From: an uncultured Gemmatimonadales bacterium
GTDB lineage: Bacteria > Gemmatimonadota > Gemmatimonadetes > Gemmatimonadales > GWC2-71-9
Direction of reading: 5' to 3'
DNA: 64,000 nt
Assembly: GCA_963842945.1 (NCBI GenBank)
Contig: CAWJIM010000006.1
Location: 32,001-96,000 of the forward strand
The notes under the pieces: model-generated
The model's database searches: none
Told to the model about the DNA's origin: nothing
The model's input: the letters and a program-made list of their open reading frames with translations, nothing else
Shown here: piece by piece, positions 1-50,631 of the stretch
How the letters are laid out: every line of letters starts with the position of its first letter
How positions within the stretch are numbered: position 1 is the stretch's first letter
Position numbers and translations under genes: made by a program

Positions 1-1730
1 AGGTTCGGGTGATAAGTCCAGGTATTGGTGGCGACGTGAGTCGGCCTGAACCCTGCTCAGGCTGGCACCGGACGAATTCCGCGCGAGATGAGCACCAGCG
101 TTCGTATATGACATCCTGTCCGCCCTGGTTGACGGGCGGCCGTAGCGACCGGACTGCGGGTCCCGCCCGATGTCGGTCGGGCGACCCAGCCGATCTGCTG
201 CTGACGAGATCCAGGCGTGACTAGGCAATCCGACCTCGGCGACCCATGGGCGTGACTACTCGTTCTTCAGTCGCTGGCAGCCAAACGAGCAGCCTGGCCA
301 GTGAAAAGCCGCGCATTGGTATCGCCCGCGGCCAGCAGTCCATCGATGTCACGAGTGGCTCTCCGGCCGTGCAGCAAATCCACGGGGTAATCTGGGCTGC
401 TTCATCATCGCTGAACCTCCATAGCTGAGGAACAGGTTAATACCCCACTGACCTTCCCGAATCGGAAGGACGGTGCGGCCGCTCGAACCTGCTCCCCAGC
501 CGCCTCAAGTGACAGTCAACAAAGCCACCGTGAGTCACAGGCGTCCAGCGGACTGGGCCACAGTACCCTGGACCAGCGTTCCCACCTTCAGGGCCCGGGC
601 GACACTATCGGGAGAAACGTTGGTGTGGCGGTAGGGCCCGACTCCATTCTGGGAGATCACCCGCAGCGTGGGGACGCGGCTGAGCTGATGAATGAGCTCT
701 TCAGTGAGGCCATCGGCCAGATAGCTCAGTGAATCCCGAGGGTACCGCTGCTGGAAATAGAGCACGGCAATGTCCCGCGGATCGAATACCGCTGCACGCG
801 CGACCGAGTGCGGCTCTCCTGCCCGGGACTGGAGAATCGCCGACAGGATTCCCAGGGCCACCGCGGTGACCGCCAGTGCGGTCCAGACCTGCCGGGAGCG
901 CCGAGCCGGTGCCCGCTCGCTATCTGACTCGAGCCCTGCGAGCGTCGCTGCGAACTCGCTCATGTGAAAGCGTTCCGCCGGCTTCTTGGCCAGGGCACGC
1001 GCCACTGCCGCCTGCACCTTCTCGGGCACTGAGCGGTCCACCAGACTGAGACTGGGCGCCTGCTCCAGCGAGTGGCGCGCGACGATGGTCGTAACGCTGT
1101 GACCTTCGAACGGAGGAGCGCCGGAGAGCATCTCGTACAGCACACAGCCGAGGCTGTAGACATCGCTCCGCCCATCAATGTCCGCATTGCCCAGTGCCTG
1201 TTCGGGGCTCATGTACTGCGGTGTACCGAAGACGGGACCGCTACCGGCCACAGGCTCAGCATCGTTTGCCGCCCGGGCTATACCATAGTCGGCCACCAGG
1301 ACATGATCCTTCTGCAGCAGAATATTTTCGGGCTTCACGTCACAATGGATGACTCCCTGTTCATGAGCGTAGGCGAGCGCGTCGGCTGCCTCGCGCGCGA
1401 TCCGGAGCGCCTCAGCCAGTGGCGGACGGGGCTTCCGGAGGAGACGCTGCCGCAGTGACTCTCCTTCCACAAACGGCATGACGTAGTACAGAAAGCCATT
1501 TCCCGAGCCCGAGTCGAACAACGGCAGGATGTGCGGGTGCTGGAGATTGGCGACAACCCGGATCTCACTGAAGAATCGCTGGGGACCGACCGCCGCGGCG
1601 AATGCGGGACGGAGAACCGTGAGCGCGACCTGGCGCTCGTGGCGCAGGTCGCGAGCGAGATAAACGGCGGCCATGCCACAGTCTCCCAGCTTACGCTCGA
1701 GCTGAAGCGGTCGGCGAGGCCTATGTGCAG
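1..1730 (-). pseudogene. Degraded Hanks-type Ser/Thr kinase with TM helix and TolB-N-like C-terminal region
   Basis: ORF 535..1674 has kinase motifs, but altered: VALT instead of VALK and HCD instead of HRD (DYG and GTPQYMSPE intact). A frameshift near 1706 separates LADRF from QLERKLGDCGMA. The in-frame TGA at 535-537 (GRL*LTVALL) is followed by further decayed remnants towards base 1. Confidence 0.75.
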
Positions 1731-1867
1731 TTTATCGCGTTAATCTGATGCAGTAGGTCCACCGCGGGAGAGCCTTTGAAGCCCCAGGAAACAACTCCCT
1801 ACGCTGGGGACCTATGTAATATATTGCTGCGTCCCCCGAGACATAGATGGTTCAATAGAGGTGATAC

Positions 1868-2943
1868 ATGAGGCATCATCGGGCCCAGCCCCTGCGCCGG
1901 TTCTCTATTCTTGTCCTGGCACTGGCCGGGTTAGTCGCCTCGAGTTGTGCCCCCGATGGGTCGGAGCCTACGGACCCCCGACCCACCTTGGCTCTCGGGA
2001 CGCAAGCTCCCGATTTGACCCGGGCTCTCGCCGCGCAGGCGCGGTACACCGAGAGGCTGCTACGGGTCGAGGGGGTAGTCGGGACGGCGGTTGGGCTCGG
2101 CGCCGACGGTCAGGCCGAGGTGCAGCTCTACACCAAGGTGCCTGGTGTACCGGGGCTTCCGGCCAGACTGGACGGGGTGTCGGTCTCGGTCGTCGTCACT
2201 GGTGAGATCCGAGCCATGCCGATTGTGGCCGATGCTCCCGCAGAGGTGTCGGCCGGGACTCGCATAGACCCGAGCGGCTAATTCGTCGTTCGGTGCCGAT
2301 CGGCGTGTCCACCGGAAACCAGGGGGAGTGCTCGGCCGGAACGATTGGTGCCCGGGTGAAGTCGGGCAACGCCACCTACGCTCTCAGCAACAACCACCTC
2401 TACGCCCTGGAGAACACGGCCCCGCTCGGCAGCAAGGTGCTTCAGCCTGGCCGTGCTGACCTCAAGTGTGGCAGTGGATCGAGTGCCGTCCTGGGCCCGC
2501 TCAGCAAGTTCGTACCGATCCAATTCTCCACCAGCGCCAACAACAAGGTGGACGCCGCGATTGTGGCTGCCACGACGGCGAACCTGGCCAGGAGCACGCC
2601 CATCGATGGCTACGGTACCCCCCGCACCAGCATCGCAGCGGCAGCCCTCAATCAAGTGGTCCAGAAATACGGGAGGACGACAGGACTCACGACCGGTACC
2701 GTAGTCGGGGTCAACGATATACTGAACGTCCGCTACTCCAGCGGAACCGCGCGATTCGTCGGCCAGATCACCATCAGGGGCCCCGGCCAATTCTCCCGCG
2801 CGGGCGATTCGGGCGCTCTCATCGTTAACACCGATAAACGCCCGGTCGGTCTTCTTTTCGCCGGCACCATGAACGGCTACACCTTTGCCAACCAGATCGG
2901 GGACGTGCTCACGGCCCTGAGGGTCTCGATCGACGGCACCTGA
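1868..2943 (+). CDS. Trypsin-like (S1/Nal1-like) serine protease lipoprotein, interrupted at ~2279-2292
   Basis: ORF 1868..2281 has a lipobox-like LVASSC and a GVVGTAVG prodomain. ORF 2293..2943 has the triad motifs LSNNH, VDAA and GDSGA. The two ORFs are separated by a TAA plus a frame change. Confidence 0.7.
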
Positions 2944-3027
2944 GCGGGACCCACGAGGCGCGCGCAGAACGGGTCACTCCTTGTTGCGATCGAGATGAGT
3001 CCAGTGGGTCCGGAATGATGCACTGAG

Positions 3028-3491
3028 CTATTTCTGAGAGACCTTCTCCCCTTTTGGAATAATGCCGCGTACTGGCCGTATCCCTCCGCCTCCAGCTTGT
3101 CGGCCGGGATGAACCGGAGCGCCGCCGAGTTCATGCAGTAGCGGAGACCGGTGGGCGCGGGACCGTCATCGAACACGTGGCCCAGGTGGGAGTCGGCGTG
3201 CTTCGACCGCACCTCGGTCCGCTCGGCGAAGAGCTTGGAGTCGGTCTTGGTCTCAATGTTGGCCGGCTCCAGCGGACGGGTGAAGCTGGGCCAGCCGGTG
3301 CCCGAGTCGTACTTGTCGAGCGAGCTGAACAGCGGCTCCCCGGAGACGACATCCACGTAGATGCCGGGCTCGTGGTTGTCCCAGTAGGCATTGCTGAACG
3401 GCCGCTCGGTGCCCTCGTGCTGGGTCACCTGGTACTGCTCCGAACTGAGCTTCTGCTTGAGCTCGGCGTCGCTGGGCTTGTTGAAGGTCAT
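3028..3491 (-). CDS. msrB: Peptide-methionine (R)-S-oxide reductase
   Basis: [27 protein letters not shown] and RYCMNS motifs. The true stop is probably TAG at 3028-3030 after a G-run indel near 3050; the ORF track reads through to 2877. Confidence 0.95.
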
Positions 3492-3522
3492 CGGCGTTCC
3501 ATCCTTTTGGTTGTAGTCGTTG

Positions 3523-3616
3523 GAGTCACGAGACGCGAGTCTGGAGTCATGAGTCGAAGCGTCGGCAGATCCGGATAGTCGGCACGGCTCCTGACTCCTG
3601 ACTCCCGACTCCTGAC
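3523..3616. repeat. Inverted pair of heptamer tandem arrays (GAGTCNN x5 / GACTCCY x4)
   Basis: GAGTCAC-GAGACGC-GAGTCTG-GAGTCAT-GAGTCGA at 3523-3557 and GGCTCCT-GACTCCT-GACTCCC-GACTCCT at 3586-3613. Confidence 0.85.
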
Positions 3617-4278
3617 AGCTTGCTATCCCCCCACAACTCCTTCATCCTCTCCTCCCGCCCACAGCCAATCACGTAGGCCCGATACCGCTCGGGATTCTTC
3701 TTGTAGAACTGCTGATGGTACTCCTCCGCGGGATAGAACTTGGTCGCCCGCTGGATCTCGGTCACCACCGGAGTCTTGAAGCGATGCGAGCGGTCGAGCG
3801 CCTGCTTCGAGGCCTCCGCCGCGCGCTCCTGCGCCGAGTCGCGGTAGAAGATGATCGAGCGGTACTGCGGGCCGGTGTCGCAGAAGGCCCGGTTGACGGT
3901 CGTCGGATCGATGTGGTGCCAGTAGATGTCGAGCAGCCCGTCGTACGAGATCCGGGCCGGCTCGTAGATCACCTGCACCGACTCGGCGTACCCGGTCTTG
4001 CCGGTTTCCACGAACTCGTAGTCCGGATTGGGCTGGGTGCCGCCGGCATAACCCGCCGTCACCTCGACAACGCCGGGCACCCCATCGAACGCCTTCTGCA
4101 TCGACCAGAAGCAGCCGCCGGCAAAGATCGCGATCTTCTGGGCCCCGGTGGGGACCGGCAGAGTGGCGAATTGGACATGCCGGGCCGGAGCGGCGCGGGG
4201 CGGCTTCAGGGCTAGAATGCTCAAACCTAGGAATGACAACAGGATAAGGCCGGCGAATCGGACGGTCGAACGAGTCAT
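3547..4278 (-). CDS. msrA: Peptide-methionine (S)-S-oxide reductase with N-terminal signal/anchor
   Basis: [21 protein letters not shown] motifs. Hydrophobic N-terminus from ATG 4278. The C-terminal tail is encoded by heptamer repeats. Confidence 0.95.
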
Positions 4279-46067: not shown

Positions 46068-48824
46068 TTACGGCCTGCTTTGGCCGGTGCCGGACCGGGC
46101 ATTCAGCCGGTCGAGTGTCTCGCCCAGCCGCCGCATCTCCTCTCCGTATTTCGCCCAGTCCAGATCCCGTTGGGCTTGGATGGCCGCTTGGTAGTGCTGC
46201 TTCGCTTCGCGAAGCAGAGTCGGGAGCTGGGAGTCGGGAGTCGGGGGCTCGATTGGCCCGAGAGTATCTGGGGTAACTCTCCCGACTCCTGACTCCCGAC
46301 TCCTGACTCCTCCCCCGAACATCTCCGCCAGCCCTTCATCCAGCGTCTCCCGCATTACCACCCGGTTCTGATACGCCACCACCACCCGCTTGAGCTCGGG
46401 AATCCGGCCCCCCTCGGCTCTCAGGTAAATCGGCTGGACGTACATCAACGCTTCCTCGATCGGAATCACCAGCAGGTCGCCCCGAATCACCTGTGAGCCC
46501 CGCTGGTCCCAGAGCGTGAGCTGCTGGGAAACCTCGGTGTTCTGGTTGATCCGGTTCACGATCTGCTGGGGCCCGAAGGCGAGACTCTGCCGGGAGAGCC
46601 GGTACACTCGGAGCTTGCCGTACTCAGCTCCATCGTTCCGGGCCGCCATCCAGGCCGCCAGGTTGTCCTTCCCCCTGGGGGTGAAGGGAACCATGTAGAT
46701 GTACTCCGCGCTCTTCTCCTCCGGCAGCCGCATCACGATATGCCGCATGAAGGGGACTTTGCCTTCGGCCTCGGTGGCCTCGGGGATTTGCCACTGGTCC
46801 TCCCGGTGATAGAAGTCCACCGGGTCGTCCATGTGATACGTGGTGTAAAGCCCGGCTTGAACCCGGTAGATCTGGTCGGGGTAGCGGATATGCGCCCGGA
46901 TATCGGCGGGCATCCTCTCGAGCGGAGCGAAGATGCCGGGGAAGACCCGGGACCAGGTCTGGATGATGGGATCGCCCGGCGCGCTCACGTAGGCCACCAT
47001 CGTGCCGTCGTAAGCATCGAGCACCAGCTTGACGCTGTTTCGCATGTAGCTGGTGCCGTTCCGCAGCCGCTCGGCGTAGGGATAGCGGGTGGTGCTGGTG
47101 TAGCCGTCCAGGATCCACTTGAGGGTGCCGTCGTTGGCCACCACCAGATAGGGATCACGGTCGAAGCTCATGAAGGGGAGCGCCTTCCTGGCCCGCTGAA
47201 CGATGTCCCGATTGTAGAGCACCCGGCTGGAATCGGTGATGTCGCCGGAGAAGAGGATCTTGGAGGAGCCGAACTGGGCCGCGAACACCGCCCGGCGGAG
47301 GAGGCTCCCGATCGGCACTCCGCCCTTACCGGTGTATGAAGCGTAGACGTTCTTTTCGCCCGAGGGATGATCGAACTCACGCTGCCGGGTATGCACGAAG
47401 ACGAAGTCGCCGGCCAATTCGCCGTAATAGAGCTGCGGCCGGCTGACCTTGAGCGACCCGGTAGAGACCGGCGGCAGGTCCTTGATGAACAGAACCGGCA
47501 ATCCTTCGATGGTCACCTGATTGACCGGACTCAGGGTGAGCCCCATGCCGTGAGTAAAGGTGAGATGCTCGTTGATGAAAGTCCGGGTCGGCAGCGATCG
47601 GGCATTCAGCTCCCGGGGCGACAGCAGGACCTGGCGGTACTTCCCATCGATCCAGTAGCGGTCGTCGTCCACCGAGACGAAGTCGTAGTAGGTGCGAATC
47701 TCCTGCAGCTGGCCGAAGGTCTGCAGCAGGGGATCGCGATCCCAGAGCCGCACATTGTCGATGGTCGGCGCGTTCGCCCGAATATCCGCCATGGTGAGGT
47801 TGGTCTCACCGGTGAGCTCGCGGGTCTCGACGCTATCCAGTCCCCAGGCCTGTCGGGTCGCCAAAATGTGGGAACGGAGATAGGGAGTCTCTCTGGTCAG
47901 CTCGGTGGGAGACACCAGAAACTTCTGGACGAAGCCCGGTACCAGGCCGCGCCCGACGATCGCCGTCACCAGGTAGGCGGCGATCGCAAGTACGGCATAG
48001 CGACCCAGCTCTCGCCGTGCGGCGCCGACGATGACGGCTGCAGCAGCCAAAACGGACACGCCGGAGAGGATTCTGAGAGCAGGTAGCGTGGCGTGGAGGT
48101 CGGTGTAACTGGCGCCTACCAGAGGGCCGGTAGTGGAGTAGAGCAGGTTCGAGGTGTCCACCAGCCAGAGTCTGAGAGCCAGCAACAGAAACACGGCGGC
48201 CAGCAGAGCCGCGATGTGGGTTCCGGCCGACGGCTCGATCCGGAGGCGGGGCGTTCTCCGGGCGCCCGGGCCGATCACGATGTCGCCCCGAACCACATAG
48301 ACCGGAACGATCACCACCAGGGAGATCAGCGCGAGGGTCGACAGGAATCCGAGAGCAGCCGAGAGCGCGGGAAGGGTGAAGACGTAGAAGCCCACGTCCC
48401 GGGAGAAGACCGGATCGCGAATGCCGAAGGGTGTGCGGTAGATGAAGCGGAGCACCAGGTCCCAGGCCGGGGTCGCCCCGAATCCGGCGATCAGTGCAAC
48501 CGCGAGCGAAACCGGCAGGCTGACACGGCGAAGCGGTCCGGTGAGATCGACCCGCGGCTGATTCTGGGCAAAGCGGAGCACCACCGGATATGGCACCAGG
48601 CCCCGTTGGGCGAGCCGCAGGTTGCCGTAGAGTACGCCGAAGGTGATGCCGCCGACGCCAAGGAAGAGCACCAGACTGGTAAGGAGCGGCCGGGAGAAGA
48701 CGGCCTGGTAGCCGATTTCCTGGAACCACCACCAGTCGGTGAGAAGGCCGATAAGCGCCGGAAAGAGGATCGCCGCCAGAAAGGCGACGATGGCGATAGC
48801 CAGGATCAGCCGGCGTTGGGACAT
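46068..48824 (-). CDS. UPF0182 family membrane protein
   Basis: DWWWFQEIGY, DPVFSRDVGFYVFTLP, NVRLWD, QLQEIRTYY, HLTFTHG, YMRNSVK, PELKRV. Confidence 0.95.
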   Translation of the reverse strand: MSQRRLILAIAIVAFLAAILFPALIGLLTDWWWFQEIGYQAVFSRPLLTSLVLFLGVGGITFGVLYGNLRLAQRGLVPYPVVLRFAQNQPRVDLTGPLRRVSLPVSLAVALIAGFGATPAWDLVLRFIYRTPFGIRDPVFSRDVGFYVFTLPALSAALGFLSTLALISLVVIVPVYVVRGDIVIGPGARRTPRLRIEPSAGTHIAALLAAVFLLLALRLWLVDTSNLLYSTTGPLVGASYTDLHATLPALRILSGVSVLAAAAVIVGAARRELGRYAVLAIAAYLVTAIVGRGLVPGFVQKFLVSPTELTRETPYLRSHILATRQAWGLDSVETRELTGETNLTMADIRANAPTIDNVRLWDRDPLLQTFGQLQEIRTYYDFVSVDDDRYWIDGKYRQVLLSPRELNARSLPTRTFINEHLTFTHGMGLTLSPVNQVTIEGLPVLFIKDLPPVSTGSLKVSRPQLYYGELAGDFVFVHTRQREFDHPSGEKNVYASYTGKGGVPIGSLLRRAVFAAQFGSSKILFSGDITDSSRVLYNRDIVQRARKALPFMSFDRDPYLVVANDGTLKWILDGYTSTTRYPYAERLRNGTSYMRNSVKLVLDAYDGTMVAYVSAPGDPIIQTWSRVFPGIFAPLERMPADIRAHIRYPDQIYRVQAGLYTTYHMDDPVDFYHREDQWQIPEATEAEGKVPFMRHIVMRLPEEKSAEYIYMVPFTPRGKDNLAAWMAARNDGAEYGKLRVYRLSRQSLAFGPQQIVNRINQNTEVSQQLTLWDQRGSQVIRGDLLVIPIEEALMYVQPIYLRAEGGRIPELKRVVVAYQNRVVMRETLDEGLAEMFGGGVRSRESGVGRVTPDTLGPIEPPTPDSQLPTLLREAKQHYQAAIQAQRDLDWAKYGEEMRRLGETLDRLNARSGTGQSRP
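46217..46311. repeat. Inverted pair of heptamer arrays (GAGTCGG x4 / GACTCCY x4) forming a ~95-nt hairpin inside UPF0182
   Basis: Arrays at 46217-46244 and 46278-46311, translated as [10 protein letters not shown]...PTPDSQLPT. Confidence 0.85.
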
Positions 48825-48879
48825 GGAGCCAACTTACACTTTGCTGGGCCAGTCGCTACGCTGGACTGGACCGGGTGAG

Positions 48880-49072
48880 CTAACCCTTCATCGCAGCGAA
48901 GGGGCTACGCCTAGGCTCCAGCCGATCATAGTACCGGGCGGGATTCGACTCGAAGTCCCGTCGGCACTGGTCGGAGCAGAAATACACTGGCCTGCGATTC
49001 GTATGTGGTGCTGCCCGCGGCGTCACTCACCTCGATCCACATACCGCAGACCGGATCTTTCACGTTACTCAC
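48880..49072 (-). CDS. YHS/TRASH-domain small protein (not in ORF track; one frameshift at ~48991)
   Basis: AGGAG RBS and GTG start; MSNVKDPVCGMWIEVSDAAGSTTYESQ / PVYFCSDQCRRDFESNPARY (DPVCGM and YFCS..C signature). Confidence 0.8.
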
Positions 49073-49127
49073 ACTGCACTCCTGGCTAGACACTGAGTTC
49101 AGTGTTGCGGGCCAGGCACGAGGGCTC

Positions 49128-49143
49128 TGTGATGTGAATCACA
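49128..49143. promoter_or_regulatory. CRP/FNR-family binding site
   Basis: Perfect TGTGA-N6-TCACA (TGTGATGTGAATCACA), 21 nt from a -10-like AACACT in front of the YHS gene (class II geometry). Confidence 0.7.
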
Positions 49144-49187
49144 AACAAAACGGCCCGCACTTCCGGGTGGAAATGCGGACCGTTTTC
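49143..49187 (-). terminator. Intrinsic terminator
   Basis: AAAACGGTCCGCATTTCC-ACCC-GGAAGTGCGGGCCGTTTT followed by GTTTGT. Two U-G wobbles are valid only on the minus strand. Confidence 0.8.
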
Positions 49188-49460
49188 ACACTGGCTATCC
49201 GGAGTCGGAGGATTTGCTCCTCCGTTTTTCTTCCCTTGGCCACCGCCTAAACTGAAGCGTTTGCGGTCTGGCCTCAGGAGCTCCGGTTTTTATTCCCGAA
49301 TGATTTGCGCGACCACTCGGTTCACCAGCGTGTGCGCTGCAAGTCGGCTGAATCGCGGATCAACCTCTTGCTCGGCACGCTGCCGCGCTACTGCAGCGTG
49401 GATGAGACGCGCGATTGGTCTCAACAATCCAACACGAAAATGATCTTTTTTCGAATTGGC
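49143..49460 (-). ncRNA. Putative ~320-nt structured non-coding RNA of unrecognised class
   Basis: Promoter and terminator bracket a run of consecutive hairpins with minus-strand G-U pairs; no credible ORF. Confidence 0.6.
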
Positions 49461-49466
49461 GAAGAC

Positions 49467-49495
49467 AACATAGGAAGACTGTTTCCATCGCGCAA
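49467..49495 (-). promoter_or_regulatory. Sigma70-like promoter of the putative ncRNA
   Basis: TTGCGC-N17-TATGTT. A second TTGACA lies upstream at 49536-49541. Confidence 0.6.
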
Positions 49496-49586
49496 GAGGG
49501 TGGCAGTTATCCACTTACGTGAACATTTCTAACATTGTCAACAGCTGCGTGGGAGGGCGAAACCATTGGCCGGTTCACTGGGTTAG

Positions 49587-50631
<1,045 letters not shown>

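Follow-up and report, generated by a model that had tools for sequence, protein, structure and literature searches.

Large bacterial RNAs with complex folds are, to our knowledge, rare, and each of them has led to new biochemistry. OLE RNA is a large, structured RNA of restricted lineage, the gene of which adjoins that for a dedicated partner protein (Oap), while 6S and Ms1 RNAs stand alone under their own promoters and terminators and are nearly universal in their lineages. Pairing between the hairpin loops of neighboring helices, as in the L2–L3 kissing loops of the lysine riboswitch, can lock a core of several helices. To these may be added the raiA motif RNA, which the consulted part of its description presents as a widespread, abundant and pseudoknotted stand-alone RNA of the ~200-nt class (PMC10861870), and ROOL and GOLLD, which in the consulted part of a preprint form RNA-only assemblies (10.1101/2024.12.08.627333). 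Here we describe an RNA gene to be set beside these systems, found in a 64,000-nt stretch of DNA (hereafter the window) from an uncultured Gemmatimonadales bacterium (GenBank assembly GCA_963842945.1, contig CAWJIM010000006.1, positions 32,001 to 96,000 of the forward strand). At about positions 49140–49461 of its minus strand, the window carries an independent gene for a non-coding RNA of ~320 nt with a compact, conserved fold, a member of a family that is absent from Rfam 15 and of which no published description was found. Taken alone, the claim that a real structured RNA is encoded here, and that its family is new to Rfam, is nearly certain. An initial annotation of the locus had recognized a highly structured, stand-alone RNA on the minus strand; beyond that account, the RNA proves to be a shortened paralog of a larger one that is genetically tied to a single protein gene.

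The fold is established by covariation in two alignments. The first, A1, contains 23 copies, for which RNAalifold yields a consensus of 86 pairs, 47 with compensatory changes. When two pseudoknots are added (94 pairs), 96.7% of 2150 alignment cells are paired, compared with 36–42% when the 3′ partners are slid by 1–3 columns, and 49 pairs are changed on both sides, compared with 6–15 in the slid versions; none of 500 shuffles scored as high. The second, A3, consists of 100 matches of the covariance model R1, which describes a 241-position core without pseudoknots, aligned to that model. In A3, 95.3% of 7866 cells are paired versus 37–46% after sliding, 63 of 79 pairs are changed on both sides, and the observed covariation was reached by none of 500 shuffles. 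Because R1 contains no pseudoknots, A3 is not fitted to them. It should be noted that two unpublished genomes enter parts of the analysis: G003 provides one row each of A1 and A2 and is included in the R1 and A1-based counts, among them the tests of the open reading frame (ORF) and of the P5 and P3 × P6 pairings given below, and G101 is counted in the R1, partner-profile, exoribonuclease and linkage tallies. Both are excluded from A3, A6, A7 and the tree, and no conclusion rests on either.

The elements of the locus, all on the minus strand and given in the direction of transcription, are as follows.

49519–49539, minus strand: direct-repeat DNA motif GACAATGTTAGAAATGTTCAC immediately 5′ of the −35 box, a candidate transcription-factor site
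49467–49495, minus strand: promoter read from the sequence, TTGCGC (49495–49490), 17-nt spacer, TATGTT (49472–49467)
near 49460, minus strand: predicted transcription start
49429–49459, minus strand: P1 hairpin with a GAUC-containing conserved loop, located where full-length relatives have a 5′ domain of ~135 nt
49401–49425, minus strand: P2 hairpin, the loop bases 49410–49415 (AUCGCG) of which are the kissing partner of the P4 loop
49376–49400, minus strand: P3 hairpin, abutting P2 without a linker; loop bases 49385–49389 pair with 49333–49337
49339–49371, minus strand: P4, a two-part hairpin; loop bases 49352–49357 (CGCGAU) pair with the P2 loop
49333–49337, minus strand: linker 3′ of P4, GCGCA within AGCGCA, partner of the P3 loop
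49189–49330, minus strand: 3′ domain with P6 and the P7–P11 three-way junction, enclosed by the long-range helix P5
49324–49330 with 49189–49195, minus strand: P5 long-range helix (in A3, 92.9% of cells paired and both bases altered in 6 of 7 pairs)
49296–49320, minus strand: P6 (90.2% of cells paired in A3)
49199–49286, minus strand: P7–P11 three-way-junction domain, including the hairpin 49206–49224 (83–98% of cells paired in A3)
49140–49185, minus strand: intrinsic terminator, its 18-bp stem capped by a 4-nt loop and followed by a U-rich tail
46068–48824, minus strand: UPF0182 gene (918 aa), following a 55-codon ORF

In the helices of the 5′ part, the share of paired cells in A3 is 98.6% for P2 (both bases altered in 7 of 8 pairs), 99.6% for P3 (6 of 8), and 86.1% and 97.5% for the two helices of P4, in which all 11 pairs are changed on both sides. 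For the terminator, a pattern scan gives 18 pairs at 49186–49147, and in A1 its 12 aligned pairs are formed in 96.0% of cells, five of them changed on both sides. Owing to register shifts, RNAalifold predicts no pairs for P1 on the MAFFT alignment, and for this reason single-sequence folds were used, in which P1 forms a hairpin with differing stem sequences in 15 of 15 close homologs. All sequence elements listed in the initial annotation are present where it placed them, and its P1, P2, P3, P4, P6, the multibranch domain closed by CCGGAG/CTCCGG with the CGGAGGA hairpin, and the terminator are supported, P1 by the hairpins of homologs and the others by covariation.

The two pseudoknots deserve separate mention. 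The kissing helix between the P2 and P4 loops (49410–49415 with 49352–49357) is paired in 99.0% of cells of A3, where one of its pairs occurs as GC in 55 sequences, AU in 40 and CG in one, and two others as CG:99 AU:1 and GC:99 AU:1. The reverse complementarity of these loops had been proposed over seven bases and is both real and covarying; six pairs are counted, because a seventh would compete with the pair that closes P4, for which covariation is likewise seen (AU:16, GC:7 in A1). Two loop contacts had been expected, and two exist, the second of them joining the P3 loop not to the P6 loop but to the linker 3′ of P4. This pairing (49385–49389 with 49333–49337), first noticed as one compensatory change in A1, is formed in 98.0% of cells in A3, with pair types CG:78 UA:21 UG:1 and, at the next pair, GC:99 AU:1. 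The match of the P3 loop to the P6 loop is there in the window sequence without being conserved (78.7% of cells paired, 26 of 115 gapped), and a local P5 hairpin CAGCG/CGCTG, paired in 61.7% of cells, gives way to the long-range helix, of which the same sequence forms the 5′ strand; the joint covariation score of these two discarded pairings does not differ from the mean of the shuffles, both being 0.060. P2 and P3 adjoin directly, and this, added to the two pseudoknots, suggests that the 5′ core is tightly packed.

Folding energies agree with the minus strand as the transcribed one. The minus-strand RNA folds at −150.0 kcal/mol, compared with −111.3 ± 5.6 for 100 shuffles (z = −6.96, none equal), whereas the plus strand reaches a z of only −2.82. 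The conserved helices hold many G-U pairs, which would be A-C mismatches on the opposite strand, in agreement with the orientation of promoter and terminator; the initial annotation had noted such strand-specific pairs in P4, P6 and the terminator. Both promoter hexamers are conserved across close homologs in A1; the promoter is not listed by a scan for consensus promoters because its −35 box fits TTGACA at three of six positions only. On the minus strand at 49519–49539, the direct repeats read GACAATGTT-A-GAAATGTTCAC, and kindred repeats (GTGGAAATGTGAGAAATGTGCAC) were seen by eye at the equivalent place in 12 of 14 close homologs. In the genome of origin, a motif search returned the window's own site as the sole exact one, plus one site with three mismatches. 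The repeat spacing of ~11 bp presumably resembles that of a response-regulator type of site, and the separate promoter of the window copy is probably regulated.

No known family accounts for the RNA. Against all 4227 families of Rfam 15, cmscan returned no match at the gathering score in the 64-kb window, and at E ≤ 10 over 48800–49800 there was only noise, the best being 20.7 bits (cut-off 50) on the terminator hairpin. Likewise, Rfam at E ≤ 1 gave no match on the RNA in four loci of full-length relatives. RNase P RNA, transfer-messenger RNA (tmRNA) and signal recognition particle (SRP) RNA are each found elsewhere in the genome of origin, consistent with the initial annotation, which recognized none of them here. 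Among the papers listed in literature searches, none describes an RNA motif or non-coding RNA of the Gemmatimonad lineage; in two 2026 preprints on the mining of non-coding elements with genome language models, the main text has neither ‘Gemmatimon’ nor ‘kissing’, and their supplementary cluster lists could hold this RNA. Two side observations belong to these scans. The genome of origin has two tmRNA matches above the Rfam cut-off (C16:176381–176745 and C10:29575–29938); it is rated 6% contaminated, and the bin may hold two strains. In addition, L062:1170–1254 holds a long, near-perfect, GC-rich palindromic hairpin, probably either a terminator or a repeat element, with weak matches to microRNA models on both strands.

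Among the genomes searched, the RNA family is confined to two families of one order. BLAST with the RNA finds matches in 21 of 41 related genomes, and R1 finds them in 85 of 151 genomes of the order, with counts of 60 of 61 for family f1, 24 of 27 for f3 and none of 62 for f2. In a sample of the phylum, the figures are 70 of 71 for f1, two of two for f3 and none of 77 for ten other families. The sampled genomes are kin, so that these counts describe a range and not independent events. Among the matches listed, a pattern scan of named genomes returned only chance ones from GC-rich genomes, and none of 80 loci had a meaningful R1 score, so that the scan does not bear on range; four named genomes reached through these loci, two labelled as Gemmatimonad and two as Acidobacteria, have no R1 match, which is uninformative since their families are not established.

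The window copy matches R1 with 257 bits over model positions 1–241 (window 49187–49427), and its pseudoknot bases are complementary. BLAST of the RNA against its own genome recovers the RNA itself only, a second copy (contig C19, 311696–311939; 157 bits) being detected solely by the covariance model. Copies of the C19 type and all f3 copies extend ~135 nt further in the 5′ direction, where an additional domain, made up of several covarying helices, comes after a conserved TATATT box; an alignment of 55 such full-length sequences has 106 predicted pairs, 72 with compensatory changes, and the total length is roughly 430 nt. In the window copy, P1 alone stands in the place of this domain. The ancestral form is one of ~430 nt with the extra 5′ domain, a single-copy neighbor of a gene for a 205-aa protein, and the window copy represents a separate paralog lineage from which the 5′ domain has been lost; it is not linked to the protein gene and carries a promoter of its own, preceded by the repeat motif. 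When the 100 cores are placed in a maximum-likelihood tree, 14 window-type copies group with eight other unlinked f1 copies in a single clade (support 0.93); this clade adjoins the f3 copies (support 0.90), and the linked f1 copies stand apart from it. The tree is only a lead, because it is built on ~240 columns and the model was trained on window-type and f3 sequences.

Other forms of the RNA differ in their domains as well. Some other orphan copies retain half of the 5′ domain, and the linked RNAs of some genera are without the whole P7–P11 module (L135:301–454, L136:301–454 and L137:301–447); the L135 alignment replaces 89 model positions by 0 bases, and the matches of L136 and L137 span 154 and 147 nt, respectively. 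Among the genomes concerned, two, G115 and G083, also carry an unlinked full copy elsewhere. Taken together, orphans with a partial 5′ domain and linked copies devoid of P7–P11 mean that the RNA is modular. Separately, a match at G024:C9:42941–43018 covers model positions 145–226, the three-way-junction module alone, 6.4 kb from another orphan copy on that contig.

The protein gene emerged from a comparison of the flanks of linked copies, which share a conserved reading frame of ~205 aa. A profile of this protein, A4, detects it in 85 of 151 genomes; its tallies by family and by genus equal those of R1, as do the genomes listed, and all 85 protein genes have an R1 match within 1 kb on the same contig. 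In 60 of 61 f1 genomes, the RNA is downstream of the protein gene and shares its strand; the distance to the core in f1 is 75–962 nt (median 391). By contrast, in f3 RNA and protein gene are convergent in 24 of 24 genomes with a gap of 55–173 nt; the linkage has therefore outlived a rearrangement. Conversely, 24 of 109 RNA matches are unlinked to the protein gene, that of the window included, and the only partner gene in its genome is on contig C19. This gene (L057; G000:C19:312836–313399) covers profile positions 3–193 of 206 in a frame that runs to 303 codons, with a possible frameshift or assembly error near its 3′ end.

Relatives of the partner protein are few. A search of 1.84 billion representatives gave only 131 clusters at E ≤ 0.001, mostly fragments. 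Among the matches listed, 120 of 120 close homologs are without Pfam domains, and the named ones are hypothetical proteins; relatives have ‘Gemmatimonadales bacterium’ or ‘Gemmatimonadota bacterium’ as source names, which fits the lineage guessed at in the initial annotation. No PADLOC match of note and no relative in the Protein Data Bank (PDB) by profile were found. The AlphaFold model has a pLDDT of 77.2 and a pTM of 0.73. Judged by its invariant and near-invariant residues, which include Cys, His, Asp, Glu and Arg, an enzyme seems a better description of the protein than a simple clamp on RNA. Another gene recurs in the vicinity, one for a YhaM-like HD-domain 3′–5′ exoribonuclease (PRK13480, E = 5e-42, below the curated cut-off), which is convergent to the linked RNA in many genomes (minus strand, L058:3515–4507, and at the equivalent position in L060 and L061). 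Given that it is also present in 33 of 62 genomes of the RNA-less f2 and missing from the genome of origin, it is regarded as a syntenic neighbor rather than a partner.

Metatranscriptomes hint, short of a measurement, that members of this RNA family are abundant in soil. Words sampled from 1201 nt around the RNA recur to 10–21% in twenty metatranscriptome runs from 12 studies, and contigs assembled from four RNA runs of three studies of soil and rhizosphere align to 49134–49437 at a likeness of at least 90%. The per-contig word depth of the listed pieces ranges from 5 to 3,796, with binned sums reaching ~1.9 × 10^5 in one run, while contigs on the neighboring coding region 48748–49082 have a depth of 2.0–2.6 in two of these runs. 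Several contigs end in sequencing adapters and hence represent short inserts. None of the four runs has a contig on 49438–49900, and X5 and X10 have none on the flank 48700–49109; such holes in coverage prove nothing.

On the basis of these data, it appears reasonably probable that the 205-aa protein and the full-length RNA work jointly and that the window copy is a variant or a competitor. The two would form an RNA–protein complex, or the protein would be a dedicated enzyme that processes or modifies the RNA, and the two pseudoknots would build a rigid core rather than present free CGCG loops. Because it keeps the conserved core, the window copy could be a conditionally expressed variant, or it could compete for whatever the core binds. 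A more far-reaching version, which we put forward tentatively and with doubt, is that the ~430-nt RNA and its protein are a new, lineage-wide ribonucleoprotein of soil Gemmatimonadales, part of the core genome, highly expressed, and with a catalytic or housekeeping role of the standing of RNase P, tmRNA or SRP although unrelated to them, the window RNA then being a regulated isoform reduced in domains.

Several points weigh against joint action of RNA and protein. Contact between them is putative. The genomes are kin, so that the same co-occurrence would result if a two-gene patch had been gained once in an ancestor. The joint absence from four f1 and f3 genomes (G123, G057 and two other f3 genomes) may equal one assembly gap each, as the genes are adjacent. 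The protein belongs to no Pfam or NCBIfam family, and hence to no recognizable RNA-binding family; its model finds no PDB structure by Foldseek at E ≤ 0.001 and a best Z of 5.3 by VIA, in a range rated common; and it is acidic (pI 5.2–6.3). As for the window copy, it is neither of full length nor beside the protein gene, to which only homology links it, and its terminator has a weak U-tract (GUUUGUGAUU). The metatranscriptome contigs sum over relatives and carry no information on strand, ends or level.

The explanation that competes most directly is RNA-only assembly, in which the P2 and P4 loops would pair between molecules to give dimers or larger homo-oligomers and the protein would be an incidental neighbor. 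The 6-bp kissing helix has a palindromic CGCG core and the second pseudoknot a GCGC core, covariation cannot separate pairing in cis from pairing in trans, and kissing-loop multimers made of RNA only are reported in the part consulted of the preprint cited above. With P2 and P4 25–35 nt apart and P3 stacked on P2, however, the layout permits the contact in cis, and the linkage in 85 of 85 cases would be left unexplained; we consider this assembly unlikely. The same loops bear on the suggestion of the initial annotation that the RNA is a protein sponge with four free CGCG loops. CGCG or GCGC does occur in the P2, P3, P4 and P6 loops of the window copy, but the first three are engaged in conserved, covarying pairings and the sequence of the P6 loop is not conserved, which makes a sponge very improbable. 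A global regulator of the 6S or Ms1 kind, binding RNA polymerase or another housekeeping machine, would fit an RNA with its own promoter and terminator that is nearly universal in two families and has a high contig depth in RNA libraries. The 6S model RF00013 is unmatched in the region 48800–49800, in the genome of origin and in all 151 genomes of the order from all three families; this absence carries no weight, as it extends to the 62 genomes of the RNA-less f2 and the model detects 6S RNA in only 4 of 14 control genomes. What speaks against such a regulator is the fold, since covariation yields hairpins, two pseudoknots and a three-way junction, instead of the long and irregular duplex, opened by a central bubble, by which 6S RNA is defined, and on this ground it is decidedly improbable.

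Two further readings turn on neighboring or overlapping genes. A cis-acting leader or riboswitch would serve the small ORF at 48926–49093 and the UPF0182 gene, both of which are on the strand of the RNA, with the terminator between the RNA and the next ORF, and UPF0182 is also downstream in 3 of 22 homologous loci compared (G011, the second copy of G009, and G003). Yet the downstream context differs in most homologous loci, where flanking genes recur in few cases instead of one kind of gene following on the same strand. Full-length relatives precede a convergent gene in the f1 loci examined (L058, L060 and L061) and the convergent partner gene in f3. The terminator stem is kept as a plain terminator, in which no alternative pairing was seen and none was searched for systematically; a leader accordingly has a very slim chance of being correct. 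The small ORF itself, 55 codons on the minus strand just after the terminator, has no Pfam match and contains a DPVCGM motif, which we take to be as in metal-binding domains of the YHS/TRASH type; its frame is broken relative to the closest relative. Finally, the region contains an ORF of 74 aa at 49290–49514, and if this were the functional product, the RNA structure would be incidental. The initial annotation had named protein-level conservation of this ORF as one outcome that would overturn an RNA, and no such conservation is found: a 96%-identical relative has a stop at codon 4, 12 of 16 homologs have in-frame stops, the remaining four differ in length by 1 or 2 bases, no Pfam family is matched, and substitutions in the helices are compensatory. 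The ORF is thus refuted as a coding region, and the chance that coding explains the locus is negligible.

If the full-length RNA and the 205-aa protein do act together, this locus may mark a new RNA–protein machine of soil bacteria. The fold, two pseudoknots included, is already fixed by covariation, and within a soil lineage of which few members are cultured, nearly all genomes of two families carry the RNA. The one candidate partner, a protein without a recognized fold, offers a direct experimental handle, and the natural forms, that is, the full-length RNA, the copies without the three-way-junction module, and the copies without the 5′ domain such as that of the window, are ready-made domain dissections.

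Compared with the systems introduced at the outset, the RNA has points in common with each. Its conserved loop–loop pairings could act between molecules as in the ROOL and GOLLD assemblies; those RNAs, as far as the consulted part of the preprint describes them, are much larger, and this RNA matches no Rfam family. Similar to the raiA motif RNA, it is pseudoknotted and stands alone, but it occurs in other taxa, again without an Rfam match, and raiA RNAs, in the part of the source consulted, are named for a neighboring gene and are not tied to one protein genome by genome. With 6S and Ms1 RNAs it has in common its own signals for the start and end of transcription and near-universality in its lineage, abundance being here a hint from contig depth, whereas its fold is no rod with a central bubble and RF00013 leaves it unmatched. 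The kissing of loops between neighboring helices recalls the lysine riboswitch, a cis-acting aptamer upstream of the genes it regulates, in contrast to which this RNA is a separate gene with variable neighbors. From OLE RNA it differs in lacking any match in sequence or structure (the OLE family of Rfam was among those scanned), in its length of ~430 nt (~320 nt in the window), in its host lineage, and in its partner, a soluble, acidic protein of 205 aa without a Pfam family. Adjacency of the OLE kind, absent for the window copy, the partner gene of which is on contig C19, is present in the full-length relatives in 85 of 85 genomes, and by analogy the behavior of this RNA appears closest to that of the orphan large bacterial RNAs, among them OLE RNA with its adjacent partner genes.

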